Positions 727 through 31,730 of a DNA stretch of 32,689 nt are shown here, piece after piece. The DNA comes from a virus (taxonomy: Duplodnaviria; Heunggongvirae; Uroviricota; Caudoviricetes). The position numbers and the translations under genes were made by a program. Position 1 is the stretch's first letter. Every line of letters begins with the position of its first letter. A model generated the notes under the pieces. It was not told the origin of the DNA, made no database searches, and was given only the letters and a program-made list of their open reading frames with translations. The stretch is taken from IMG/VR virus record IMGVR_UViG_2859783438_000003; one strand, written 5' to 3'.

Positions 727-826
727 NNNNNNNNNNNNNNNNNNNNNNNNNNNNNNNNNNNNNNNNNNNNNNNNNNNNNNNNNNNNNNNNNNNNNNNNNN
801 NNNNNNNNNNNNNNNNNNNNNNNNNN
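727..826. other. assembly gap (100 N) inside IS1; replaces roughly 330 bp of IS1 given the 768-bp element length
   Basis: Run of exactly 100 N between recognisable IS1 segments. Confidence 0.95.
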
Positions 827-11873: not shown

Positions 11874-11973
11874 NNNNNNNNNNNNNNNNNNNNNNNNNNN
11901 NNNNNNNNNNNNNNNNNNNNNNNNNNNNNNNNNNNNNNNNNNNNNNNNNNNNNNNNNNNNNNNNNNNNNNNNN
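11874..11973. other. assembly gap (100 N), size unknown
   Basis: Run of N between the tandem repeats and an inverted IS3-family left end. Confidence 0.95.
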
Positions 11974-15100: not shown

Positions 15101-18008
15101 TCTTGTTATTGACCTGAGTCTGGATGCTGTCCGTTTCGATGAGCAGATGAGCCGGGTAAGGCGTCATTTTTCAGGTCTGGATACCGACGCCAGAAAAACC
15201 GCCAGTGCTGTTGAACAGGGCCTGAGCCGCCAGGCGCTGGCTGCACAAAAAGCCGGGATTTCCGTCGGGCAGTATAAAGCGGCCATGCGAACCCTGCCCG
15301 CACAGTTTACGGATATCGCCACGCAGCTTGCCGGTGGTCAGAATCCCTGGCTGATCCTGCTGCAACAGGGCGGTCAGGTGAAGGACTCCTTCGGCGGGAT
15401 GATCCCCATGTTCAGGGGGCTTGCCGATGCGATCACCCTGCCGATGGTCGGGGTCACCTCGCTGGCGGTGGCGACAGGTGCACTGGTGTACGCCTGGTAC
15501 CAGGGAGATTCCACGCTTTCAGCGTTTAATAAAACCCTGGTTCTTTCCGGTAATCAGTCCGGACTGACTGCCGATCGTATGCTGACTCTCTCAAGAGCCG
15601 GGCAGGCAGCAGGGCTGACGTTTAACCAGGCGAGAGAGTCACTGGCAGCCCTGGTGAATGCCGGTGTGCGTGGTGGTGAACAGTTTGATGCCATCAACCA
15701 GAGTGTCGCGCGTTTTGCGTCTGCATCCGGTGTGGAGGTGGATAAAGTCGCTGAAGCCTTCGGGAAGCTGACCACTGACCCGACGTCGGGACTGATGGCG
15801 ATGGCGCGCCAGTTCCGTAACGTGACGGCAGAGCAGATTGCGTATGTTGCACAGCTGCAGCGTTCCGGAGACGAGGCCGGGGCATTGCAGGCGGCGAACG
15901 ATATCGCCACGAAAGGCTTTGATGAGCAGACCCGTCGCCTGAAAGAAAACATGGGAACACTGGAGACCTGGGCGGATAAAACAGGGAAGGCATTCAAATC
16001 GATGTGGGATGCCATTCTGGATATCGGTCGTCCGGAATCCTCAGCGGATATGCTCGCCAGTGCGCAGAAGGCATTTGATGAGGCGGATAAAAAATGGCAG
16101 TGGTACCAGAGTCGGAGCCAGCGCCGCGGTAAAACCTCCTCTTTCCGGGCCAACCTTCAGGGCGCATGGGATGACCGGGAAAATGCCCGTCTGGGTCTGG
16201 CAGCGGCAACGCTGCAGTCGGATATGGAAAAAGCCGGTGAACTGGCGGCAAGGGACAGGGCTGAGCGTGAGTCGTCACAGCTGAAGTATACCGGAGAGGC
16301 GCAGAAGGCGTATGAGCGCCTGCTGACGCCACTGGAGAATGCAGTCGGATATGGAAAAAGCCGGTGAACTGGCGGCAAGGGACAGGGCTGAGCGTGAGTC
16401 GTCACAGCTGAAGTATACCGGAGAGGCGCAGAAGGCGTATGAGCGCCTGCTGACGCCACTGGAGAAATATACCGCCCGGCAGGAAGAGCTGAATAAGGCC
16501 CTGAAAGACGGGAAAATCCTGCAGGCGGATTACAACACGCTGATGGCGTCGGCAAAAAAGGATTATGAGTCGACGCAGAAAAAGCCGTCCGGTGTGAAGG
16601 TGTCTGCCGGTGAGCGCCAGGAAGACCAGGCGCATGCAGCCCTGCTGGCGCTTGAAACTGAGCTCAGGACGCTGGAGAAGCACAGCGGTGCGAATGAAAA
16701 AATCAGCCAGCAGCGCCGTGATTTATGGAAAGCGGAAAATCAGTATGTNNNNNNNNNNNNNNNNNNNNNNNNNNNNNNNNNNNNNNNNNNNNNNNNNNNN
16801 NNNNNNNNNNNNNNNNNNNNNNNNNNNNNNNNNNNNNNNNNNNNNNNNAAGACCAGGCGCATGCAGCCCTGCTGGCGCTTGAAACTGAGCTCAGGACGCT
16901 GGAGAAGCACAGCGGTGCGAATGAAAAAATCAGCCAGCAGCGCCGTGATTTATGGAAAGCGGAAAATCAGTATGTGGTCCTGAAAGAGGCCGCCACGAAA
17001 CGGCAGTTATCTGAGCAGGAAAAATCCCTGCTGGCCCATGAGAAAGAAACGCTGGAGTACAAACGCCAGCTGGCTGAGCTGGGCGACAAGATTGAACACC
17101 AGAAACGGCTGAATGAGCTGGCACAGCAGGCGGCGCGGTTTGAACAGCAGCAGAGCGCGAAGCAGGCGGCAATCAGCGCAAAAGCCCGCGGACTCACCGA
17201 CCGTCAGGCGCAGCGGGAGTCGGAAGAGCAGCGCCTTCGTGAGGTGTACGGTGATAATCCGGCTGCGCTGGCGAAGGCCACATCTGCACTGAAGAACACC
17301 TGGTCTGCGGAGGAGCAGCTTCGTGGAAGCTGGATGGCCGGGATGAAGTCCGGCTGGGGCGAGTGGGCGGAAAGTGCGACGGACAGTTTTTCGCAGGTTA
17401 AAAACGCGGCCACGCAGACCTTTGACGGTATTGCACAGAATATGGCAGCGATGCTGATCGGCAGCGAACAGAACTGGCGTGGTTTCACCCGTTCTGTGCT
17501 GTCCATGCTGACAGAGATTTTTCTGAAGCAGGCGATGGTGGGGATAGTCGGGAGTATCGGCAGCGCCATTGGCGGTGCTTTCGGTGGTGGTGCGTCTGCC
17601 TCCACGGGGACGGCCATTCAGGCTGCGGCGGCGAACTTCCATTTCGCGACCGGGGGATTTACGGGGACGGGGGGTAAATATGAACCTGCGGGGATTGTTC
17701 ATCGCGGGGAGTTTGTCTTCACGAAGGAGGCGACCAGCCGGATTGGTGTCGGCAATCTGTACCGCCTGATGCGGGGCTATGCGGAAGGTGGTTATGTCGG
17801 CGGTGCCGGAAGTCCGGCGCAGATGCGGCGGGCGGAAGGCATTAATTTTAATCAGAACAATCACGTGGTGATTCAGAACGACGGCCCCAACGGGCGGGCA
17901 GGGCCGCAGCTGATGAAAGCGGTGTATGAGATGGCCCGCAAGGGGGCACAGGATGAACTCCGGCTGCAGTTGCGTGATGGCGGTATGTTATCAGGGAGCG
18001 GTGGATGA
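15081..18008 (+). CDS. H: tail tape measure protein H (reading frame broken in this assembly)
   Basis: N-terminus MSQPVGDLVIDLSLDAVRFDEQMSRVRRHFSG and C-terminus ...NNHVVIQNDGPNGRAGPQLMKAVYEMARKGAQDELRLQLRDGGMLSGSGG resemble lambda gpH; split into three track ORFs by a 125-bp tandem duplicate and an N gap. Confidence 0.8.
16214..16463 (+). repeat. 125-bp tandem duplication inside H (16214..16338 and 16339..16463) that shifts the frame
   Basis: Two adjacent near-identical copies differing by one base at the junction; the frame-0 ORF stops at 16367 and a frame-1 ORF restarts at 16339. Confidence 0.8.
16749..16848. other. assembly gap (100 N) inside H, flanked by an identical 127-bp direct repeat (16622..16748 and 16849..16975)
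   Basis: The 127 bases before and after the N run read identically, typical of overlapping contig ends that were not merged. Confidence 0.85.
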
Positions 18009-20705: not shown

Positions 20706-23700
20706 ATGGGAAAAGGTGGCGGTAAGGCACACACGCCTCGTGAGGCGAAGGATAATCTCAAATCCACGCAGATGATGAGCGTGATTGATGCGATTGGTGA
20801 GGGACTGATAGAAGGTCCGGTGAAGGGACTGCAGAGTATCCTGGTGAACAAAACCCCGCTGACGGACACGGACGGTAATCCCGTGATACACGGTGTGACG
20901 GCGGTCTGACGCGCCGGGGAGCAGGAGCAGACACCACCGGAAGGCTTTGAGTCCTCCGGTGCTGAAACCGGACTGGGCGTGGAAGTGACGAAGGCAAAAC
21001 CGGTGACGCGCACCATTACGTCCGCGAACATTGACCGCCTGCGGGTTACCTTCGGGGTGCAGTCACTGGTGCAGACCACGTCAAAGGGTGACCGAAACCC
21101 GACATCCGTCCGCCTGCTGATTCAGTTACAGCGTAACGGTAACTGGGTGACAGAAAAGGATGTCACCATTAACGGCAAGACCACCTCGCAGTTTCTGGCG
21201 TCGGTGATTCTGGATAATCTGCCTCCCCGTCCTTTTAACATCCGGATGGTCCGGGAGACAGCGGACAGCACCACGGACCAGCTGCAGAATAAGACGCTGT
21301 GGTCGTCATACACCGAAATCATCGATGTGAAACAGTGCTACCCGAACACGGCCATTGTGGGGCTGCAGGTGGATGCGGAGCAGTTCGGCGGCCAGCAGAT
21401 GACGGTGAACTACCATATCCGCGGTCGCATCATCCAGGTGCCGTCAAACTATGACCCGGAAAAACGCACGTACAGTGGTATCTGGGACGGCAGCCTGAAA
21501 CCGGCATACAGCAACAATCCGGCCTGGTGTCTGTGGGACATGCTGACTCACCCGCGCTACGGCATGGGAAAACGTCTGGGGGCGGCGGATGTGGACAAGT
21601 GGGCGCTGTATGCCATCGGGCAGTACTGCGACCAGACGGTCCCGGATAGTTTCGGGGAGACCGAGCCGCGGATGACCTTCAATGCGTACCTGGCACAACA
21701 GCGTAAGGCATGGGACGTGCTCAGTGATTTCTGCTCGGCGATGCGCTGTATGCCGGTATGGAACGGCCAGACGCTGACGTTTGTTCAGGACCGCCCGTCG
21801 GATGTGGTGTGGCCGTACACCAACAGCGATGTGGTGGTGGATGATAACGGCGTGGGTTTCCGCTACAGCTTCAGTGCCCTGAAGGACCGGCACACGGCGG
21901 TGGAGGTGAATTATACCGACCCGCAGAACGGCTGGCAGACCTCCACGGAACTGGTGGAAGACCCGGAAGCCATACTGCGCTACGGACGCAACCTGCTGAA
22001 GATGGACGCGTTCGGCTGTACCAGCCGCGGTCAGGCCCACCGTGCCGGACTGTGGGTGATAAAGACCGAACTGCTGGAAACGCAGACGGTGGATTTCACG
22101 CTCGGGTCTCAGGGGCTGCGGCACACACCCGGTGACATCATTGAAATCTGTGATAACGACTATGCCGGGACCCTGACCGGCGGACGTGTCCTGTCCATTG
22201 ATGCTGCCACCCGCACTCTGACGCTGGACCGTGAAGTGACACTTCCGGAGACCGGTGCCGCCACGGTGAACCTGATTAACGGCAGCGGTAAGCCGGTGAG
22301 TGTGGACATCACCGAACACCCCGCGCCGGACCGGATACAGGTCAGTACCCTGCCTGATGGTGTGGAGACATACGGGGTGTGGGGACTCTCCCTGCCGTCA
22401 CTGCGCCGTCGCCTGTTCCGCTGTGTCTCCGTCCGGGAAAACACGGACGGCACCTTTGCCATCACGGCGGTGCAGCACGTACTGGAAAAAGAAGCCATCG
22501 TGGATAACGGTGCCCGCTTTGAGCCGCAGTCAGGTTCCCTGAACAGCGTCATCCCACCGGCAGTGCAGCACCTGACGGCCAGTATCTGGCGCAGGCGAAA
22601 TGGGACACGCCGCGGGTGGTGAAGGGTGTGCGCTTCAGTCTGCGCCTGACCAGTGGTAAGGGAACGGATGCCAGACTGGTGACCACCGCCATCACCGCAG
22701 ACACGGAGCACCGTTTCAGCGGCCTGCCGCTCGGGGAATACACCCTGACGGTGCGGGCGATAAACAGCTATGGCCAGCAGGGTGAACCTGCCACCACCAC
22801 CTTCCGGATTGCCGCACCGGCAGCACCGTCGCGGATTGAGCTGACGCCGGGCTATTTTCAGATAACCGCAACGCCGCATCTTGCCGTTTATGACCCGACG
22901 GTACAGTTTGAGTTCTGGTTCTCGGAAAAGCGGATTGCGGATATCAGGCAGGTTGAAACCAGCGCCCGCTATCTTGGCACGGCGCTGTACTGGATAGCCG
23001 CCAGTATCAATATCAAACCGGGCCATGATTATTATTTTTACGTTCGCAGTGTGAACACCGTTGGCAAATCGGCATTCGTGGAGGCTGTCGGTCGGGCGAG
23101 CGATGATGCGGAAGGTTACCTGGATTTTTTCAAAGGAGAGATAGGGAAAACACATCTGGCTCAGGAGCTGTGGACGCAGATTGATAACGGTCAGCTTGCG
23201 CCTGACCTGGCTGAAATCAGGACGTCCATTACGGATGTCAGCAATGAAATCACGCAGACTGTCAATAAGAAACTGAAAGACCAGAGTGCGGCAATCCAGC
23301 AGATACAGAAGGTTCAGGTTGATACAAATAATAATCTGAACAGCATGTGGGCTGTGAAGCTGCAACAGATGAAGGACGGACGCCTTTATATTGCGGGTAT
23401 CGGTGCCGGTATTGAGAATACGCCAGCAGGAATGCAGAGTCAGGTGCTGCTGGCGGCAGACAGGATTGCGATGATTAATCCTGCGAATGGCAACACAAAG
23501 CCGATGTTTGTTGGTCAGGGCGATCAGATATTCATGAACGACGTGTTCCTGAAACGCCTGACGGCTCCCACCATTACCAGCGGCGGTAATCCTCCGGCAT
23601 TTTCCCTGACACCGGACGGAAAACTGACCGCTAAAAATGCAGATATCAGTGGCAGTGTGAATGCGAACGCCGGGACGCTCAACAATGTCACAATTAATGA

Positions 23701-24157
23701 GAACTGTCAGATTAAGGGGAAACTGTCAGCCAACCAGATTGAAGGCGATATAGTCAAAACAGTGGGTAAGGCTTTTCCGCGGGACTCCCGGGCACCGGAG
23801 CGGTGGCCATCAGGGACCATTACCGTCAGGATTTATGACGATCAGCCTTTTGACAGGCAAATTGTTATTCCGGCGGTGGCATTCAGCGGCGCTAAACATG
23901 AGCGGGAGAATAACGATATTTATTCGTCATGCCGCCTGATAGTACGGAAAAACGGTGCTGAAATTTATAACCGTACCGCGCTGGATAATACGCTGATTTA
24001 CAGTGGTGTTATTGATATGCCAGCTGGTCGCGGCCACATGACGCTGGAGTTTTCGGTGTCAGCATGGCTGGTGAATAACTGGTATCCCACAGCAAGTATC
24101 AGCGATTTGCTGGTTGTGGTGATGAAGAAAGCCACCGCAGGCATCAGTATCAGCTGA
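20706..24157 (+). pseudogene. J: tail tip / central fibre protein J, with an in-frame TGA at 20907..20909 and a frameshift near 22570..22620
   Basis: MGKGGGKAHTPREAKDNLKSTQMMSVIDAIGEG... closely resembles lambda gpJ; stop replaces the residue before RAGEQEQTPPEGFE in the same frame; later PPAVQHLTA in frame 0 continues as [24 protein letters not shown] in frame 2. Confidence 0.7.
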
Positions 24158-24975: not shown

Positions 24976-27732
24976 ATGACAGTAAAAATTTCTGGCGTGC
25001 TTAAAGATGGCACAGGAAAACCAGTACAGAACTGCACCATTGTGCTGAAGGCCAGACGAACCAGCAGCACGATGGTGGTGAACACGGTGGCCTCTGAAAA
25101 TCCGGATGAAGCCGGACGTTACAGCATGGATGTTGAGCATGGTCAGTACAGCGTCACCCTGCTGGTTGAAGGTTTTCCGCCTTCACATGCCGGGACCATT
25201 ACCGTCTATGAAGGTTCCAGACCAGGTACGCTGAATGATTTTCTCGGTGCCATGACGGAGGATGATGTCCGACCGGAGGCACTGCGCCGCTTTGAGCAGA
25301 TGGTGGAAGAGGTGTCACGTAACGCCTCCGCGGTTGCACAGAATACGGCAGCCGCGAAAAAATCAGCCAGCGAGGCGGCAACTCATGCAACCGATGCTGC
25401 AGCCTCAGCACGTGCCGCCAGCACGTCAGCCGGACAGGCCGCGTCGTCGGCTCAGTCAGCGTCTTCCAGCGCAGGAACGGCATCGACAAAGGCCCGTGAA
25501 GCAGCAAAAAGTGCTGCTGCAGAGTCATCAAAAAGCGCGGCAGCTACCAGCGCCAGTGCCGCGAAAACGTCAGAAACGAATGCCGCAGCATCACAAAAAT
25601 CGGCAGCCACTTCTGCATCCACAGCGACCACGAAGGCGTCAGAAGCTGCCACCTCGGCACGGGGTGCGGCGGCCTCAAAAGAGGCAGCGAAATCTTCAGA
25701 AACGAATGCATCATCAAGTGCCAGTAGTGCAGCTTCCTCGGCAACGGCGGCAGGAAATTCCGCGAAGGCGGCAAAAACGTCCGAGACGAACGCTAAGTCT
25801 TCTGAAACAGCAGCGGGACAGAGCGCCTCAGCTGCGGCAGGTTCAAAAACAGCGGCTGCATTATCTGCCAGTGCCGCGTCAACAAGTGCCGGGCAGGCCT
25901 CAGCCAGTGCCACCGCCGCCGGAAAATCGGCAGAAAGCGCCGCATCATCCGCGTCAACAGCCACAACGAAGGCTGGCAAAGCCACTGAGCAAGCCACTGC
26001 AGCAGCGAGGTCTGCTTCTGCAGCAAAAACCTCTGAAACAAATGCAAAGACTTCAGCAGACAATGCTGCTTCCTCTAAGGCAGCAGCCGCATCGTCAGCC
26101 AGTTCAGCGGCGTCATCGGCATCATCTGCGTCTGCTTCAAAAGATGAGGCGACCAGACAAGCGTCAGCAGCGAAAGGTAGTGCCACGACAGCAACAACGA
26201 AAGCATCAGAGGCGGCAGGCAGTGCGACGGCTGCATCTCAGAGCAAAGTTGCTGCTGAATCCGCGGCAACGCGCGCCGAGACAGCAGCAAAACGGGCAGA
26301 GGATATTGCATCCGCCGTGGCGCTGGAGGATGCGAGCACGACGAAAAAGGGGATAGTACAGCTCAGCAGTGCGACCAACAGCACTTCCGAGTCACTGGCG
26401 GCAACGCCAAAAGCGGTTAAGGCGGTAATGGGTGAAACGAACAAGAAAGCGCCCTTAAATAGTCCTGCACTGACCGGAACGCCAACAACACCAACTGCGC
26501 GACAGGGAACGAATAATACCCAAATCGCAAGCACGGCTTTCGTTATGGCTGCGATTGCCGCCCTTGTAGATTCGTCACCTGATGCACTGAACACGCTGAA
26601 CGAGCTGGCTGCGGCGCTGGGCAACGACCCGAATTTTGCGACCACCATGACTAACGCGCTTGCGGGTAAGCAACCGAAAGATGCCACCCTGACGGCGCTG
26701 GCCGGACTTACTACTGCGGCAGGCAAGTTTCCGTATTTTACGGGGAATGATGTCGCCAGCCTGGCAACCCTGACAAAAGTCGGGCGGGATATTCTTGCGA
26801 AATCGACCGTTGCTGCCGTTATCGAATACCTCGGTTTACAGGAAACGGTAAACAAGGCTGGTAACGCCGTTCAGCGTTCCGGCGATAAAATGACCGGAGA
26901 ACTGAAAATTGGCACGGTGAATGCGCTGCGAATTTTCAATGATACCTTCGGTCTAATTTTCCGTCGTTCAGAAGATTTTCTTCATTTCATTCCGACGGCT
27001 GAAGGACAAGGCGAAAACGGTAATATCGGCCCATTAAGGCCATTCGCTATAAATCTGAGAACAGGTGCTATATCTGTCAGCCACGGGGCCAAAATTAAAG
27101 GAGGTCTAGCTATTGGAGCTACTGATAACGCACTGGGTGAAAACTCCATTGTTCTGGGAGATAACGACACCGGATTTAGGCAAGATGGAGATGGTATTAT
27201 TAGCTTCTATTCAAATGGTTCGCGCATCGGACATATTGATGAGTTAGGATTACATCTTTATAAAGATATTGAATCTAATGGCAGCAATTTTAGATTAAAA
27301 AGTAATTACCGCCACCACATTACATTCGCCAACGAAGACGGAAGAATTCGTATGTTTTTGTGGAAAGATAACGGTGGTGATGGTGTTCATATTAATAACG
27401 GTTCAGATGGTGGTGGTGATTTCATTTTTAAAACAGATGGGGGATTTGCGCTGGGAAGTGGTGCGCAAGTTGCGTCTAGTGGCGATATTTATGGTTCAGT
27501 GTGGGAAAACAACTGGTTAAGCACATGGCTGCATAATCATGTCGTTCGGGATATTCGTCTTGGCAGCATTGAATATAAAAACGTATGGCGCGACTACGGC
27601 TTTGGCGATGCGTCAGGTTATGTTTTAACAGCCGCAATTAACAGCAATGCGGATGATATTGTCGACACTGTTGCCAGAAGGCCAATTCAGAAATTGATTG
27701 GGGGAATATGGTACAACGTGGGGAGTGTTTAA
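24976..27732 (+). CDS. stf: side tail fibre protein Stf with long Ala/Ser/Thr-rich repeat region
   Basis: 918 aa; N-terminus [30 protein letters not shown] resembles lambda Stf; residues about 110-470 are low-complexity repeats (AAKTSETNA...); C-terminal Gly-rich fibre domain. Confidence 0.85.
26819..26844 (+). other. left crossover site for a Gin/Pin/Hin-type DNA invertase, inside stf
   Basis: TTATCGAATACCTCGGTTTACAGGAA; right half matches the gix/pix consensus TTATCCAAAACCTCGGTTTACAGGAA as I recall it; inverted relative to the site at 29735..29760. Confidence 0.6.
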
Positions 27733-27733
27733 G

Positions 27734-28261
27734 ATGATGCACCTGAAAAATATTAAGGCCGGGAATCCGAAAACACCGGAACAATACCAGCTAACTAAAA
27801 AAGCGGGCGTGGTATGGCTCTTTTGCGAAGATGGCAAAAACTGGTATGAGGAACAAAAGAATTTTCAGCCAGACACCATAAAAATTGCTTACGATGAGAA
27901 CAACATCATCGTTGCTGTCAGTAAAGACGTTTCAACTATTAATCCTGAAGGGCTAAGCATAGTTGAAGTTCCTGATATTACGGCAAATCGTCACGCAGAC
28001 AATAACGGAAAATGGATGTTTCTGGATGGTAAAGTAGTAAAGAGGGAATATACAGAACAGGAACTGCAACAACAGGCCGAATCACAAAAGGCCGCATTGC
28101 TTTCCGAAGCTGAATCAGTCATCCAGCCGCTGGAACGCGCTGTCAGGCTGAATATGGCAACAGACGAGGAACGCACACGACTGGAAGCATGGGAACGCTA
28201 CAGTGTTCTGGTCAGCCGTGTGGATACGGCAAATCCTGAATGGCCACAAAAGCCTGAATAA
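27734..28261 (+). CDS. tfa: tail fibre assembly protein Tfa
   Basis: [40 protein letters not shown]... resembles Tfa chaperones; the track ORF starts upstream but ATG 27734 follows the stf stop. Confidence 0.8.
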
Positions 28262-28289
28262 AAATTAAGGCCCGATAGCGGGCCTTCTC
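28262..28289. terminator. bidirectional hairpin between convergent tfa genes
   Basis: ggcccgatagcgggcc palindrome flanked by A/T runs. Confidence 0.5.
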
Positions 28290-28823
28290 TCATTCTGGTT
28301 GTTCGGGAAACGTTACTGGCAGGCTGGAGGTGTCTGTGGATTCAACCTTCTGCGCATAGAGCATCCACTCGGTTAATTTTTGTTTATTCTCATCGGAAAT
28401 GATGCCCAGCTGTAGCTGAGAGTCCCACAGCTGGGTTTTATCCCTGACGAGCTGCAGCAGGCTCTGCTTTTCATTTTCCGCTTGTTGCCTTTGCTCTTCC
28501 TCGGTATAAGTTCGCTTTATCACCGCACCATCTTTGAACATCCAGTTGCCCGAAATATCAGCCCGGCGATTTGCTGTAATATCAGGCAACTCAACGACAC
28601 TTAAACCTTCTGGATTAATTGCTGATACATCCTTGTCTATAGCAATAATTATTCCCTCAACTGTGTAAGCCAGTTTTATTGTATCCTCCTGAAAGTTTTT
28701 TAATTCCTCATGCCAATTTTTTCCATCTTCGGACCATAACCAGATAACATCAAAATTCTTTGTTAGCTGGTATTGTTCAACGGTTTTTGGATTACCTGCG
28801 ACAATGTTTTTTAAATGCTGCAT
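28290..28823 (-). CDS. alternative tail fibre assembly protein Tfa' (inverted orientation)
   Basis: [40 protein letters not shown]... paralogue of the plus-strand Tfa. Confidence 0.75.
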
Positions 28824-28975
28824 GATTATACCTGCGATACGTTATACCATGTTCCGTTAATTAACTTTTGTATTGGTCTGAATACTGCCGGATCATCACC
28901 ATCGACTTCACCGATAATACCAAGCCCCGTGATTACATGGCCTGATTTTTCATACATCACGCCTTTCTTCATGGT

Positions 28976-29734
28976 CTAAACAACTCGTGTGCCAAGTCTG
29001 ACATCTCTCACATAGCGGGAATCAAAGTTACCGTAATCCGAGGGATTAACACGTCCCGTAATATTTATGGTTTTATTACTTTGAATGCTTCCGGAGACAA
29101 AGCGCATAACATGGACGTTATTAGCATAAACATCCAGATTACCATCGCCTTTTTGTTTAAAGCCCGTGTCATTATCACCCAATACAATCGAATTACCGCC
29201 AAGAGCACTGGATGTTCCGATACCCAGTGCACCATTCAGTTGACCACCAGATAACGGCAGTGCACCAACATCTCCTGCTGAAGGTTTTCTGGTGGTGTAA
29301 AATTCGGACCAGTCGGCTTCAAAACCATAACCATCACGGGCTGAACGATAAAAAATACCGCCATTTTTATAATTAATCCGAAACTGAGCTGCAGGACAAC
29401 TTCCTTCTCCCATATAAAAATGAATAATTAACGTTGATGCACCACTAATAGTTGCGTTATAGGCTCCGCTACTCCAGTTCCATCCAACTGCTTTATCATT
29501 CGCAACGGTGCTTCCTGTTTTCCCTAAGGCAAACGCACCAACATGACTTGCTTTTAATGTGATATCGGAGGAACCATCAAAAGCCACATTGCTTATTTTC
29601 CTGGCAGTTTTTAATTTTGCAGCTGTAGAAGCATTGCCGGATAGTTCACCAGAAAGGCCACCGCTGAATGTTTGTCGATTAGTCCAGGTATTCGCTGTAC
29701 TGAGTAACGGTATTTTCTCCCCGCTTGTGCCGAG
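28976..29734 (-). CDS. alternative tail-fibre C-terminal cassette (promoterless, starts at the crossover site)
   Basis: Minus-strand frame open from the crossover site: LGTSGEKIPLLSTANTWTNRQTFSGGLSGELSGNASTAAKLKTARKISNVAFDGSSD... ...[21 protein letters not shown]; in frame with stf if the segment inverts. Confidence 0.65.
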   Translation of the reverse strand, partial: LGTSGEKIPLLSTANTWTNRQTFSGGLSGELSGNASTAAKLKTARKISNVAFDGSSDITLKASHVGAFALGKTGSTVANDKAVGWNWSSGAYNATISGASTLIIHFYMGEGSCPAAQFRINYKNGGIFYRSARDGYGFEADWSEFYTTRKPSAGDVGALPLSGGQLNGALGIGTSSALGGNSIVLGDNDTGFKQKGDGNLDVYANNVHVMRFVSGSIQSNKTINITGRVNPSDYGNFDSRYVRDVRLGTRVV

Positions 29735-29760
29735 TTCTCGTAAACCGAGGTTTTAGATAA
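29735..29760 (-). other. right crossover site for a Gin/Pin/Hin-type DNA invertase
   Basis: Plus strand TTCTCGTAAACCGAGGTTTTAGATAA, whose complement TTATCTAAAACCTCGGTTTACGAGAA matches the left site and the gix/pix consensus. Confidence 0.65.
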
Positions 29761-29790
29761 TGGCGGTTTCTGGCCTGCATGGCATGATTT

Positions 29791-30045
29791 GTGCTTTTGG
29801 ACGGGAGATTCAGCGTGCTGATTGGCTATGTAAGGGTATCAACAAATGACCAGAATACAGACCTGCAACGAAACGCTCTTGTTTGTGCAGGATATGAACA
29901 AATATTTGAAGATAAATTAAGCGGAACAAGGACAGGCCGACCTGGATTAAAACGTGCTTTAAAGCGCCTTCAAAAAGGTGACGCACTGGTTGTCTGAAAA
30001 CTGGACTGACTGGGTCACTGTATGCGGCATCTTGTCGTGCTGGTG
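29791..30045 (+). pseudogene. pin: serine-recombinase DNA invertase (Pin/Gin family), inactivated
   Basis: GTG start then LIGYVRVSTNDQNTDLQRNALVCAGYEQIFEDKLSGTRTGRPGLKRALKRLQKGDALVV, then TGA where the family has W, a second TGA, degenerate sequence, and fusion to a tfa 3' end around 30039. Confidence 0.75.
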
Positions 30046-30120
30046 GTGGAAGCCTAGAAAAAGTATCGGGTGTTGCTGAACCGTGTTGATACATCAACTG
30101 CACCTGATATTGAGTGGCCT
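30039..30120 (+). pseudogene. tfa 3'-end fragment, duplicate of 31104..31185
   Basis: Encodes ...[21 protein letters not shown], nearly identical in DNA to the end of ORF 30921..31190. Confidence 0.6.
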
Positions 30121-30195
30121 ACGAACCCTGTCAGGGAGTAATCATTGGGATTATGCCGCAGCACGTCTTAAGCAAGAACGTGCTGCGGTTGGATG

Positions 30196-30864
30196 CTATT
30201 TTTTCCCTGAAGCGGAAAACATTACTACAGTACCTTGAACCCTGGTTTTAACATTCTCGAAATGCTCTGAGAGTATATGTGTTAAGCCTTCTTCGGAATC
30301 TTTTGTGTTTGAAAAGATGCCTTTCTGATTGTAAATGCGCATCAGTTTTTGACCGAAGCTATTGTGCACAACTCCATCGCCAAGAATTGTGGCTCCGTAT
30401 AGAGTTCCATCATCAGTTAAGGCCTGCGCCGCATTGCGTATTACACAGCTTTTTGTAGATATATTTCCAGGCAGGCAGTGAAGAAGGTAAAACATGGAAA
30501 TGGAATCAAATTGACCATGTAACGCCGCGGGATAAGGTTCAAAAACATCATGGCTAATTTTATGTTTAATTTTTGATTCCCCAGCCCTTGTAGATGCCGC
30601 GTTCAGGCTAGCTTCGTTCAAATCCATTAAAGATATCAGACTACTCTCAGGTACGTGAGTAAGGTAAAACCCAGTTCCAACACCAATATCCAGATGGTTG
30701 TTACCTAAATGTTCCAGAAAGTGTGGAAGAAGGTGTTCCTTTGTAGGACATCCCCATGCAAGCCGATTTGATACTCCCAAAACCCACCAGTCATAAAGCT
30801 TTAGGGTAAGTGGTGTGTAAATTTTAGCCCCATCATCTGTGTTTTTTTTCATTAATTTCACCAT
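30196..30864 (-). CDS. class I SAM-dependent methyltransferase, substrate unknown (AT-rich cargo gene)
   Basis: 222 aa with glycine-rich motif I LDIGVGTG and downstream acidic and hydrophobic motifs of Rossmann-fold methyltransferases; lower GC than the flanking phage genes. Confidence 0.65.
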   Translation of the reverse strand: MVKLMKKNTDDGAKIYTPLTLKLYDWWVLGVSNRLAWGCPTKEHLLPHFLEHLGNNHLDIGVGTGFYLTHVPESSLISLMDLNEASLNAASTRAGESKIKHKISHDVFEPYPAALHGQFDSISMFYLLHCLPGNISTKSCVIRNAAQALTDDGTLYGATILGDGVVHNSFGQKLMRIYNQKGIFSNTKDSEEGLTHILSEHFENVKTRVQGTVVMFSASGKK

Positions 30865-30920: not shown

Positions 30921-31190
30921 ATGCTGCCGCAGCATAGCGATATTGAAATAGCCTGGTATGCTTCGATACAGCAGGAGCCGAATGGCTGGAAGACCGTCAC
31001 CACACAGTTCTACATCCAGGAATTCAGTGAGCATATTGCGCCACTTCAGGATGCTGTAGATCTGGAGATCGCAACGGAGGAAGAAAACTCGTTGCTGGAA
31101 GCCTGGAAGAAGTATCGGGTGTTGCTGAACCGTGTTGATACATCAACTGCACCTGATATTGAGTGGCCGGAAGAACCAGACACAATGTAA
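30921..31190 (+). pseudogene. tail fibre assembly protein fragment (C-terminal half only)
   Basis: Ends ...[37 protein letters not shown] like Tfa C-termini; lacks the conserved N-terminal ...KNI.AGNP.. region. Confidence 0.55.
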
Positions 31191-31316
31191 GGCAGTATGA
31201 CTTTCCGTGAGACAGATGCTGGCCAACGTGGGATATTTAACGCGGGTTAACATCGTTGTCAGAGCCGCATGGGTGAGCTGTTGCTACACCCCGGTATTTC
31301 CACCACGGAGGCCAGC

Positions 31317-31411
31317 ATGAACAACAATAACACATTGTACGTCGGGTTAGATGTTCACAAAGAATCGATTACTGTCGCTTATGCTATCAATTCAGAACCT
31401 GTTGAACTGAT
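31317..31411 (+). mobile_element. start of an IS110-family-like transposase gene (rest in gap)
   Basis: GGAGG then ATG; MNNNNTLYVGLDVHKESITVAYAINSEPVEL has the VG.DV.K motif typical of IS110-family N-termini; call is tentative. Confidence 0.4.
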
Positions 31412-31511
31412 NNNNNNNNNNNNNNNNNNNNNNNNNNNNNNNNNNNNNNNNNNNNNNNNNNNNNNNNNNNNNNNNNNNNNNNNNNNNNNNNNNNNNNNNN
31501 NNNNNNNNNNN
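31412..31511. other. assembly gap (100 N)
   Basis: Run of N between an IS110-like start and an IS1 3' part. Confidence 0.95.
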
Positions 31512-31730
31512 GATGGCTGGCCGCTGTATGAATCCCGCCTGAAGGGAAAGCTGCACGTAATCAGCAAGCGATATACGCAGCGAATTGAGCGGCATAACCT
31601 GAATCTGAGGCAGCACCTGGCACGGCTGGGACGGAAGTCGCTGTCGTTCTCAAAATCGGTGGAGCTGCATGACAAAGTCATCGGGCATTATCTGAACATA
31701 AAACACTATCAATAAGTTGGAGTCATTACC
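31512..31730 (+). mobile_element. insB: IS1, 3' part of a second copy (InsB C-terminus 31512..31715 plus terminal repeat)
   Basis: Same InsB C-terminal translation as 523..726 and terminal ...caataagttggagtcattacc. Confidence 0.85.

Follow-up and report, generated by a model that had tools for sequence, protein, structure and literature searches.

The closest described relative of the locus analysed here is prophage Phi4 of Escherichia coli ST131 strain EC958, for which Forde et al. 2014 (PLoS One 9:e104400; PMC4134206) reported a 3106-bp invertible segment between two 26-mers, together with a "truncated DNA invertase". The alternative Phi4 orientation was recovered in that work as a separately assembled PacBio contig, both orientations occurring in one culture, and inversion was inferred to be carried out in trans by the invertase of the P2-like prophage Phi1 (PMC4134206). 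The DNA considered here, referred to below as the window, is the 32,689-nucleotide viral record IMGVR_UViG_2859783438_000003 (Caudoviricetes); its element of interest is an invertible segment of a side tail-fibre gene (stf), which is followed by the remains of an invertase gene. The system is already known, since the 2014 work both described and explained its orthologue, down to the truncated invertase. We propose, with a probability of roughly 80 %, that a defective lambdoid prophage orthologous to Phi4 carries here an orphan Gin-type inverton, which can be flipped only by a Gin-like invertase acting in trans.

Judged by sequence and location, the locus is the orthologue of Phi4, situated beside ompW and the trp operon. 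Both share the two 26-mers, two TGA codons in the invertase gene, the fusion of the latter to a fragment of a tail-fibre assembly gene (tfa), the downstream methyltransferase gene, the lambdoid type of remnant and the ompW/trp location. The left and right sites of the window were identical to the published Phi4_5prime and Phi4_3prime 26-mers of EC958, respectively (Table 3, PMC4134206). The module is ordered as stf, invertible segment, invertase stub, tfa fragment, methyltransferase gene (30196-30864, minus strand), another tfa fragment and Rha regulator, and was syntenic with the prophage remnant next to ompW/trpA in EC958 and NCTC86. The first ~755 bp of the silent cassette (cassette B, see below) and the downstream region were 98.5 % identical between the window and EC958 Phi4, and the stub translations of the two were one residue apart. 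The stub alleles of EC958, 4/0, 4/1-1 and NCTC86 displayed the same fusion point and all three stop codons of the window. NCTC86 was 99.8 % identical to the window over 29761-30200, and the closest invertase allele was that of the NCTC86/B-2207 lineage (four assemblies).

With respect to EC958 Phi4 the window is nevertheless a mosaic: it carries another distal cassette A, other tfa genes and another C-terminal tail of cassette B, and its segment measures 2.9 kb as against 3.1 kb. A TAG codon in cassette B, a 22-bp deletion in J and an IS1-containing insertion downstream were private to the window in this comparison. Over the left 24 kb, identity between the window and its nearest relatives was just 97.7 %. 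In E66 and 30821_1#280 the module resided within a prophage adjoining potB; its presence both there and at ompW/trp indicates that it has moved between attachment sites.

Crossover sites and fibre cassettes

The initial annotation proposed that two inverted 26-bp sites bracket the stf C-terminus, tfa, an inverted tfa' and an alternative C-terminus, an arrangement on which the sites, Pfam matches and a pattern search agreed. The left gix-like site (26819-26844, plus strand, TTATCGAATACCTCGGTTTACAGGAA) lies inside stf and has the central dinucleotide TC at 26831-26832, while the right one (29735-29760, minus strand, reverse complement TTATCTAAAACCTCGGTTTACGAGAA) is centred on GA at 29747-29748, TC and GA being one dinucleotide in inverted orientation. 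The two sites matched each other at 22/26 positions, in inverted mutual orientation, and a repeat finder returned them within the arms (26815-26844 and 29735-29764) of a 30-nt inverted repeat. Compared to the Mu gix sequence TTATCCAAAACCTCGGTTTACAGGAA, taken from AF083977, they deviated at two and three positions (24/26 and 23/26), which supported the relatedness to gix that had been presumed. The pix sites of e14 (TTCTCCCAAACCAAGGTTTTCGAGAG, from the e14 region of K-12) were much farther away, so that of the two systems initially suggested for comparison, e14 pin and Mu gin, only the latter proved close as far as the sites are concerned. A degenerate gix pattern retrieved only these two sites from the whole window, where shuffles (n = 100) predicted 0.00. 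The pair displays the configuration of Gin/Hin/Cin/Pin (Din) sites, that is, paired inverted 26-bp imperfect palindromes with a shared non-palindromic centre.

The constant, non-inverting 5' part of stf (24976-26831, plus strand) ends at the crossover point and was 96 % identical to stf of EC958 and NCTC86. It is continued in frame by cassette A (26832-27732, plus strand), the intact and presently expressed C-terminus, which matched PF20744; the resulting open reading frame (ORF; 24976-27732) encodes 918 amino acids, with PF08400 over residues 1-134. Cassette A was ~93 % identical to the silent cassette of E66, which sits there inverted and adjoining the dead invertase. It is followed by tfa (27734-28261, plus strand; PF02413, E = 8e-37), the assembly chaperone for cassette A. 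The minus strand holds tfa' (28290-28823; PF02413, E = 5e-34), the assembly gene for cassette B, and cassette B itself (28826-29747; PF12604), a silent and N-terminally incomplete alternative C-terminus with a gp37-type fibre domain. The 5' end of tfa' and tfa form an imperfect inverted repeat of 159 nt.

Inversion of 26832-29747 in silico at the central dinucleotide kept the reading frame and produced ...VIEYLGL|RELGTSGEKIPLLSTANTW..., exactly as had been anticipated. As is typical of such switches, the fibre gene can take either of two C-termini in frame, and each comes with a cognate tfa, though cassette B is shortened: an in-frame TAG at 28976-28978 interrupts it 49 codons short of its natural end. 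At this codon NCTC86 and isolate 30821_1#280, in which cassette B is joined to stf, expressed and uninterrupted, have CAG (Gln). A 50-mer spanning the TAG had no exact match in genome_contigs. The stfE gene of e14 was also tried as a reference for this codon and discarded as unrelated sequence; NCTC86 and 30821_1#280 settled the point. The first description of the segment as complete was thus overly favourable, this nonsense codon having gone unmentioned.

Because of this codon, a flip in the window would exchange the intact 918-amino-acid Stf for a fibre that stops at 875 amino acids and is devoid of the conserved C-terminal tip. Gene J (20979-24157) bears a 22-bp deletion at ~22572 relative to gpJ of NCTC86, bordered by the short repeat CTGACGG, and is split by the frameshift into ORFs of 547 and 513 amino acids. 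The prophage could consequently not make a normal tail tip and is defective beyond its invertase. Taken together, the cassette B nonsense codon and the frameshifted J would make a flip useless to the virion, and the expectation that inversion yields a different receptor-binding tip went too far, as no working alternative tip would result. Before a silent cassette is taken to encode a "different receptor-binding tip", it should itself be examined for lesions.

Four runs of exactly 100 N were present in the window (727-826, 11874-11973, 16749-16848 and 31412-31511). Any ORF that seems to run across one of them is an artefact; this applies to the split tape-measure ORFs at ~16.7 kb and to a 148-amino-acid ORF at 31269-31715, among others. 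The C-terminal part of an IS1 transposase (31512-31715; PF03400, E = 2e-35) adjoins the last masked run, and the insertion that holds it (31170-31730) had no counterpart in EC958 or NCTC86.

The invertase pseudogene and its predicted enhancer

The gene next to the right site is an invertase pseudogene (gin/pin stub, 29815-30043, plus strand) of ~77 codons with a GTG start at 29815 and PF00239 over residues 3-60. Its first 60 codons are open, include the catalytic Ser9 motif VRVSTNDQ and were near-identical to Gin in translation. Two TGA codons follow, at 29995-29997 (W61 of Gin) and 30007-30009 (R65 of Gin), and in alignments with Mu gin, e14 pinE and an intact P2-type invertase the homology ended at ~30043. 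From there on the stub is fused in frame to a 3' fragment of tfa (30044-30141, plus strand), which is a 96 % direct repeat of 31093-31168, contains its own TAG at 30055-30057 and is listed in the EC958 and NCTC86 annotations as a partial tail fibre assembly protein. The two in-frame TGA codons, the truncation and the tfa fusion had all been recognised from the start. Some 115 of 193 invertase codons are lost, among them those of the E-helix and the helix-turn-helix DNA-binding domain. As read from its DNA, with two nonsense codons and this deletion, the cis invertase cannot be functional, and the locus lacks the functional serine invertase gene that accompanies one of the sites in Din systems.

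It could be argued that the stub is still active, either because the TGA codons are read through or because an N-terminal fragment suffices, as its first 60 codons are open, include the Ser9 motif and are 95-96 % identical in DNA to intact phage invertases. Even with read-through, however, tfa sequence would stand in place of the E-helix and the DNA-binding domain, R65 is lost and another stop, the third (TAG), lies further on; the probability of residual activity is accordingly regarded as negligible.

The origin of the stub could be traced in part. Its first ~270 nt displayed 95-96 % DNA identity to intact invertases of P2-like and Mu-like phages (P88, SfMu, D108, Xuanwuvirus). At nt ~285-312 the stub corresponds to e14 pinE (TATGCGGCATCTTGTCGTGCTGGTGG) and not to gin, up to the deletion point, and this pinE-type stretch after ~270 Gin-like nucleotides suggests that the ancestral invertase gene was itself mosaic. 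This pinE-like stretch, at columns ~285-312 of the alignment, was placed at window 30099-30126, with 30019-30043 given for the pin stub. Neither the dead-invertase module nor the fusion was found at ≥80 % coverage in any of 50,697 deposited phage genomes (0/50,697), where the stub had no matches other than intact invertases, Gin-like and from P2- and Mu-like phages. Among carriers the gene decayed in steps: E66 has the fusion and the R65 stop only, 30821_1#280 also has the W61 stop, and the window, NCTC86 and ST131 carry in addition the TAG in the tfa fragment. The class I S-adenosylmethionine-dependent methyltransferase gene (30196-30864) lies between direct repeats of the tfa 3' end (30044-30119 and 31093-31168, 96 %), and in thousands of other E. 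coli genomes the same methyltransferase gene is preceded by an intact tfa. The truncation of the invertase probably goes back to a deletion that joined pin codon ~77 to that tfa at a CTGG/TGG microhomology.

Enhancers of the invertase family comprise 65 bp with a Fis site at either end, ~100 bp from one crossover site (PMC3798978), and the Mu enhancer lies within the invertase gene, as worded in PMC3798978 and in the title of Kahmann 1985 cited therein. A corresponding Fis-dependent recombinational enhancer is predicted inside the stub (29860-29922, no strand assigned), where two G-N13-C 15-mers (29860-29874 and 29908-29922), spaced 48 bp centre to centre, constitute candidate Fis sites. The stretch from +80 to +180 of the crossover was identical to Mu gin at 100/101 positions. 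The stub thus likely retains the enhancer, which would account for the continued suitability of the orphan locus for inversion.

A more ambitious proposal is that the first ~250 nt of the stub have been kept for the cis Fis enhancer, and that a selected "orphan inverton" makes use of the invertases of co-resident P2- or Mu-like prophages, having spread to ~10 % of E. coli genomes and to no fewer than two attachment sites. The host might then profit from alternating Stf, for instance against phage adsorption; blocking of the adsorption of other phages has been reported for PinQ and StfE2. The enhancer zone and its flanks were compared among carriers, and all parts were 98-100 % identical (~99 % over the whole module), which leaves no power to detect selection. 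This proposal is considered unlikely.

Orientation of the locus in related genomes

A whole-segment query (26300-30300) against 5426 complete E. coli genomes found none in which at least 80 % was covered in one place, and the cassette A and B pairing of the window was absent from all of them. Since this pairing was not represented, the survey relied on junction-specific queries, built for each orientation. The fusion of dead invertase and tfa (coverage ≥80 %) was detected in 532 genomes. The junction observed in the window, with cassette B adjoining the stub, occurred in 374, and the junction expected after inversion, with an A-type cassette adjoining the stub, in 150. Both orientations were encountered within ST131, one in EC958, 4/1-1, 4/4 and U13A-U15A and the other in JJ1886, 4/0 and U12A.

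A clean flip was seen between the ST131 strains 4/1-1 and 4/0. Once the 4/1-1 locus had been inverted in silico at the central dinucleotide, it equalled that of 4/0 over 10,743/10,743 bp, with no mismatch and no gap. Uninverted, the match between the two broke precisely at both sites, while CAGGAA and CGAGAA, the outer half-sites, had changed places as predicted. The exchange was confined to site positions 10-21, a 12-bp identical core centred on the cleavage dinucleotide, which fits site-specific cleavage and speaks against RecA-dependent recombination. The latter, acting at the inverted repeats, or else horizontal replacement of cassettes, could be invoked to account for the two orientations, given that cassettes are mosaic and traded between prophages, that the pairing seen in the window was found in 0/5426 genomes, and that the module occupies two attachment regions, ompW/trp and potB. 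Yet 4/0 and 4/1-1 differ by the inversion alone, and 12 bp of identity is too short for RecA-dependent recombination. In addition, Forde et al. found, for Phi1, about half of the reads in each orientation in one culture, besides the alternative contig for Phi4 (PMC4134206). An origin of the two orientations other than site-specific inversion is accordingly held to be very improbable.

The following course of events would account for these observations. Each 26-bp site would bind a dimer of serine invertase, and the synapse would be activated by the Fis-bound enhancer, which lies early in the invertase gene. Strand exchange at TC/GA would then flip 2.9 kb and join the constant 5' part of stf to either cassette A or cassette B, each with its own tfa behind it. 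The cis invertase is an old and widely inherited pseudogene, in which a deletion fused the stub to the tfa fragment and nonsense codons appeared later. The sites and the enhancer-bearing stub being intact, a compatible Gin-like invertase from elsewhere in the cell would be needed, and the candidate in ST131 would be that of the P2-like Phi1. The Phi1 invertase of EC958 is intact (199 amino acids), lies beside its own gix-like sites and was 100 % identical in ST131 4/1-1. The switch of the window has decayed further; a flip would bring a truncated Stf in place of an intact one and no benefit to any virion.

Several points weigh against this proposal. ST131 is heavily over-represented in the counts of 374 and 150 genomes, which are therefore not independent in phylogenetic terms. 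Differences in orientation were sought among the four assemblies of the NCTC86/B-2207 lineage and none was found, all sharing a single orientation, which implies that flipping is not universal and that the switch may be static in some lineages. A scan of the window for other invertase-like sequence was negative, so that a compatible enzyme was not seen there, and identity to Mu gin is the sole argument for enhancer function.

The uniform orientation in that lineage could also mean that the locus is a fully locked fossil, with no compatible invertase in this particular genome, cassette A frozen in the expressed position and the segment decaying. The dead cis invertase agrees with this, the cassette B nonsense codon and the J frameshift are as expected without selection on the switch, and an intact invertase of the Phi1 type was recovered by megablast in only 641/5426 genomes. 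Such a fossil, however, describes the state of one genome and not the competence of the locus: identical sites and stub do flip in ST131, other Pin-family invertases are common in E. coli and work across prophages (PMC12529663), and a silent cassette may acquire a nonsense codon with or without flipping. As a description of the window's own genome, the locked state is a serious contender, at somewhat less than even odds. The orphan inverton dependent on a trans-acting enzyme remains the preferred explanation, and flipping in the window's own genome depends on a co-resident Gin-like invertase. The initial annotation had pronounced the switch locked unless an invertase from another prophage acts in trans; as a general statement "locked" did not stand, while the trans clause was borne out at the orthologous locus by Forde et al., by the 374 and 150 genomes and by the comparison of 4/1-1 with 4/0.

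Three deposited records deserve separate mention. NZ_CP015087.1, an "extrachromosomal" O25b:H4 sequence of 32,764 bp, repeats the prophage end found at ompW/trp in the chromosome, but with the segment oriented the other way and with trpA and trpB frameshifted; it looks like a spurious contig of the alternative orientation that was submitted as a replicon. Forde et al. had warned of just such an artefact (PMC4134206). The 5.45-Mb chromosome NZ_CP082831.1 (SCAID WND1-2021) displayed both junction types, at 4.77 Mb and 2.25 Mb, the module being either present twice or duplicated in the course of assembly. The exact 32-mer of the invertase-tfa fusion was also present in JAEWTL010000008.1, a 2.5-kb contig of a metagenome-assembled genome labelled "Bacillota bacterium"; most likely the contig comes from Escherichia and was mis-binned or is a contaminant.

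Taken alone, the finding matters little, being a textbook Gin-type tail-fibre switch that had been read correctly. The survey adds modestly to it: about one in ten complete E. coli genomes share a single pseudogene allele, and at least one major clone has continued to flip the segment. A dead neighbouring invertase does not equal a frozen inverton, and annotation and assembly pipelines should expect both orientations, as well as spurious alternative contigs, at this locus.

Comparison with other known invertons

The G segment of phage Mu has the same architecture, S(c)-gix-[Sv U / U' S'v]-gix-gin, with alternative in-frame C-termini that are each accompanied by a chaperone. Mu and the window were 92 % identical over the first ~250 nt from the crossover and 99 % identical in the enhancer zone. 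Unlike in Mu, the carrier here is a lambdoid stf and not a baseplate fibre of the Mu/P2 kind, the invertase is dead and one cassette is nonsense-mutated.

The P segment of e14 (PinE) is likewise a tail-fibre inverton of a cryptic prophage in E. coli. PinQ and PinR are the cross-prophage invertases listed with it in K-12, and inversion of the e14 P segment by PinQ of Qin is an experimental instance of action across prophages (PMC12529663). In contrast to the window, pinE of e14 is intact, and the e14 cassettes are unrelated. More distant is the Hin/hix system of Salmonella with its Fis enhancer, which belongs to the same invertase subfamily and has 26-bp sites and a 65-bp enhancer ~100 bp off (PMC3798978). 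Hin flips a promoter for flagellin phase variation and not a coding cassette, and its sites and cargo are unrelated to those of the window.

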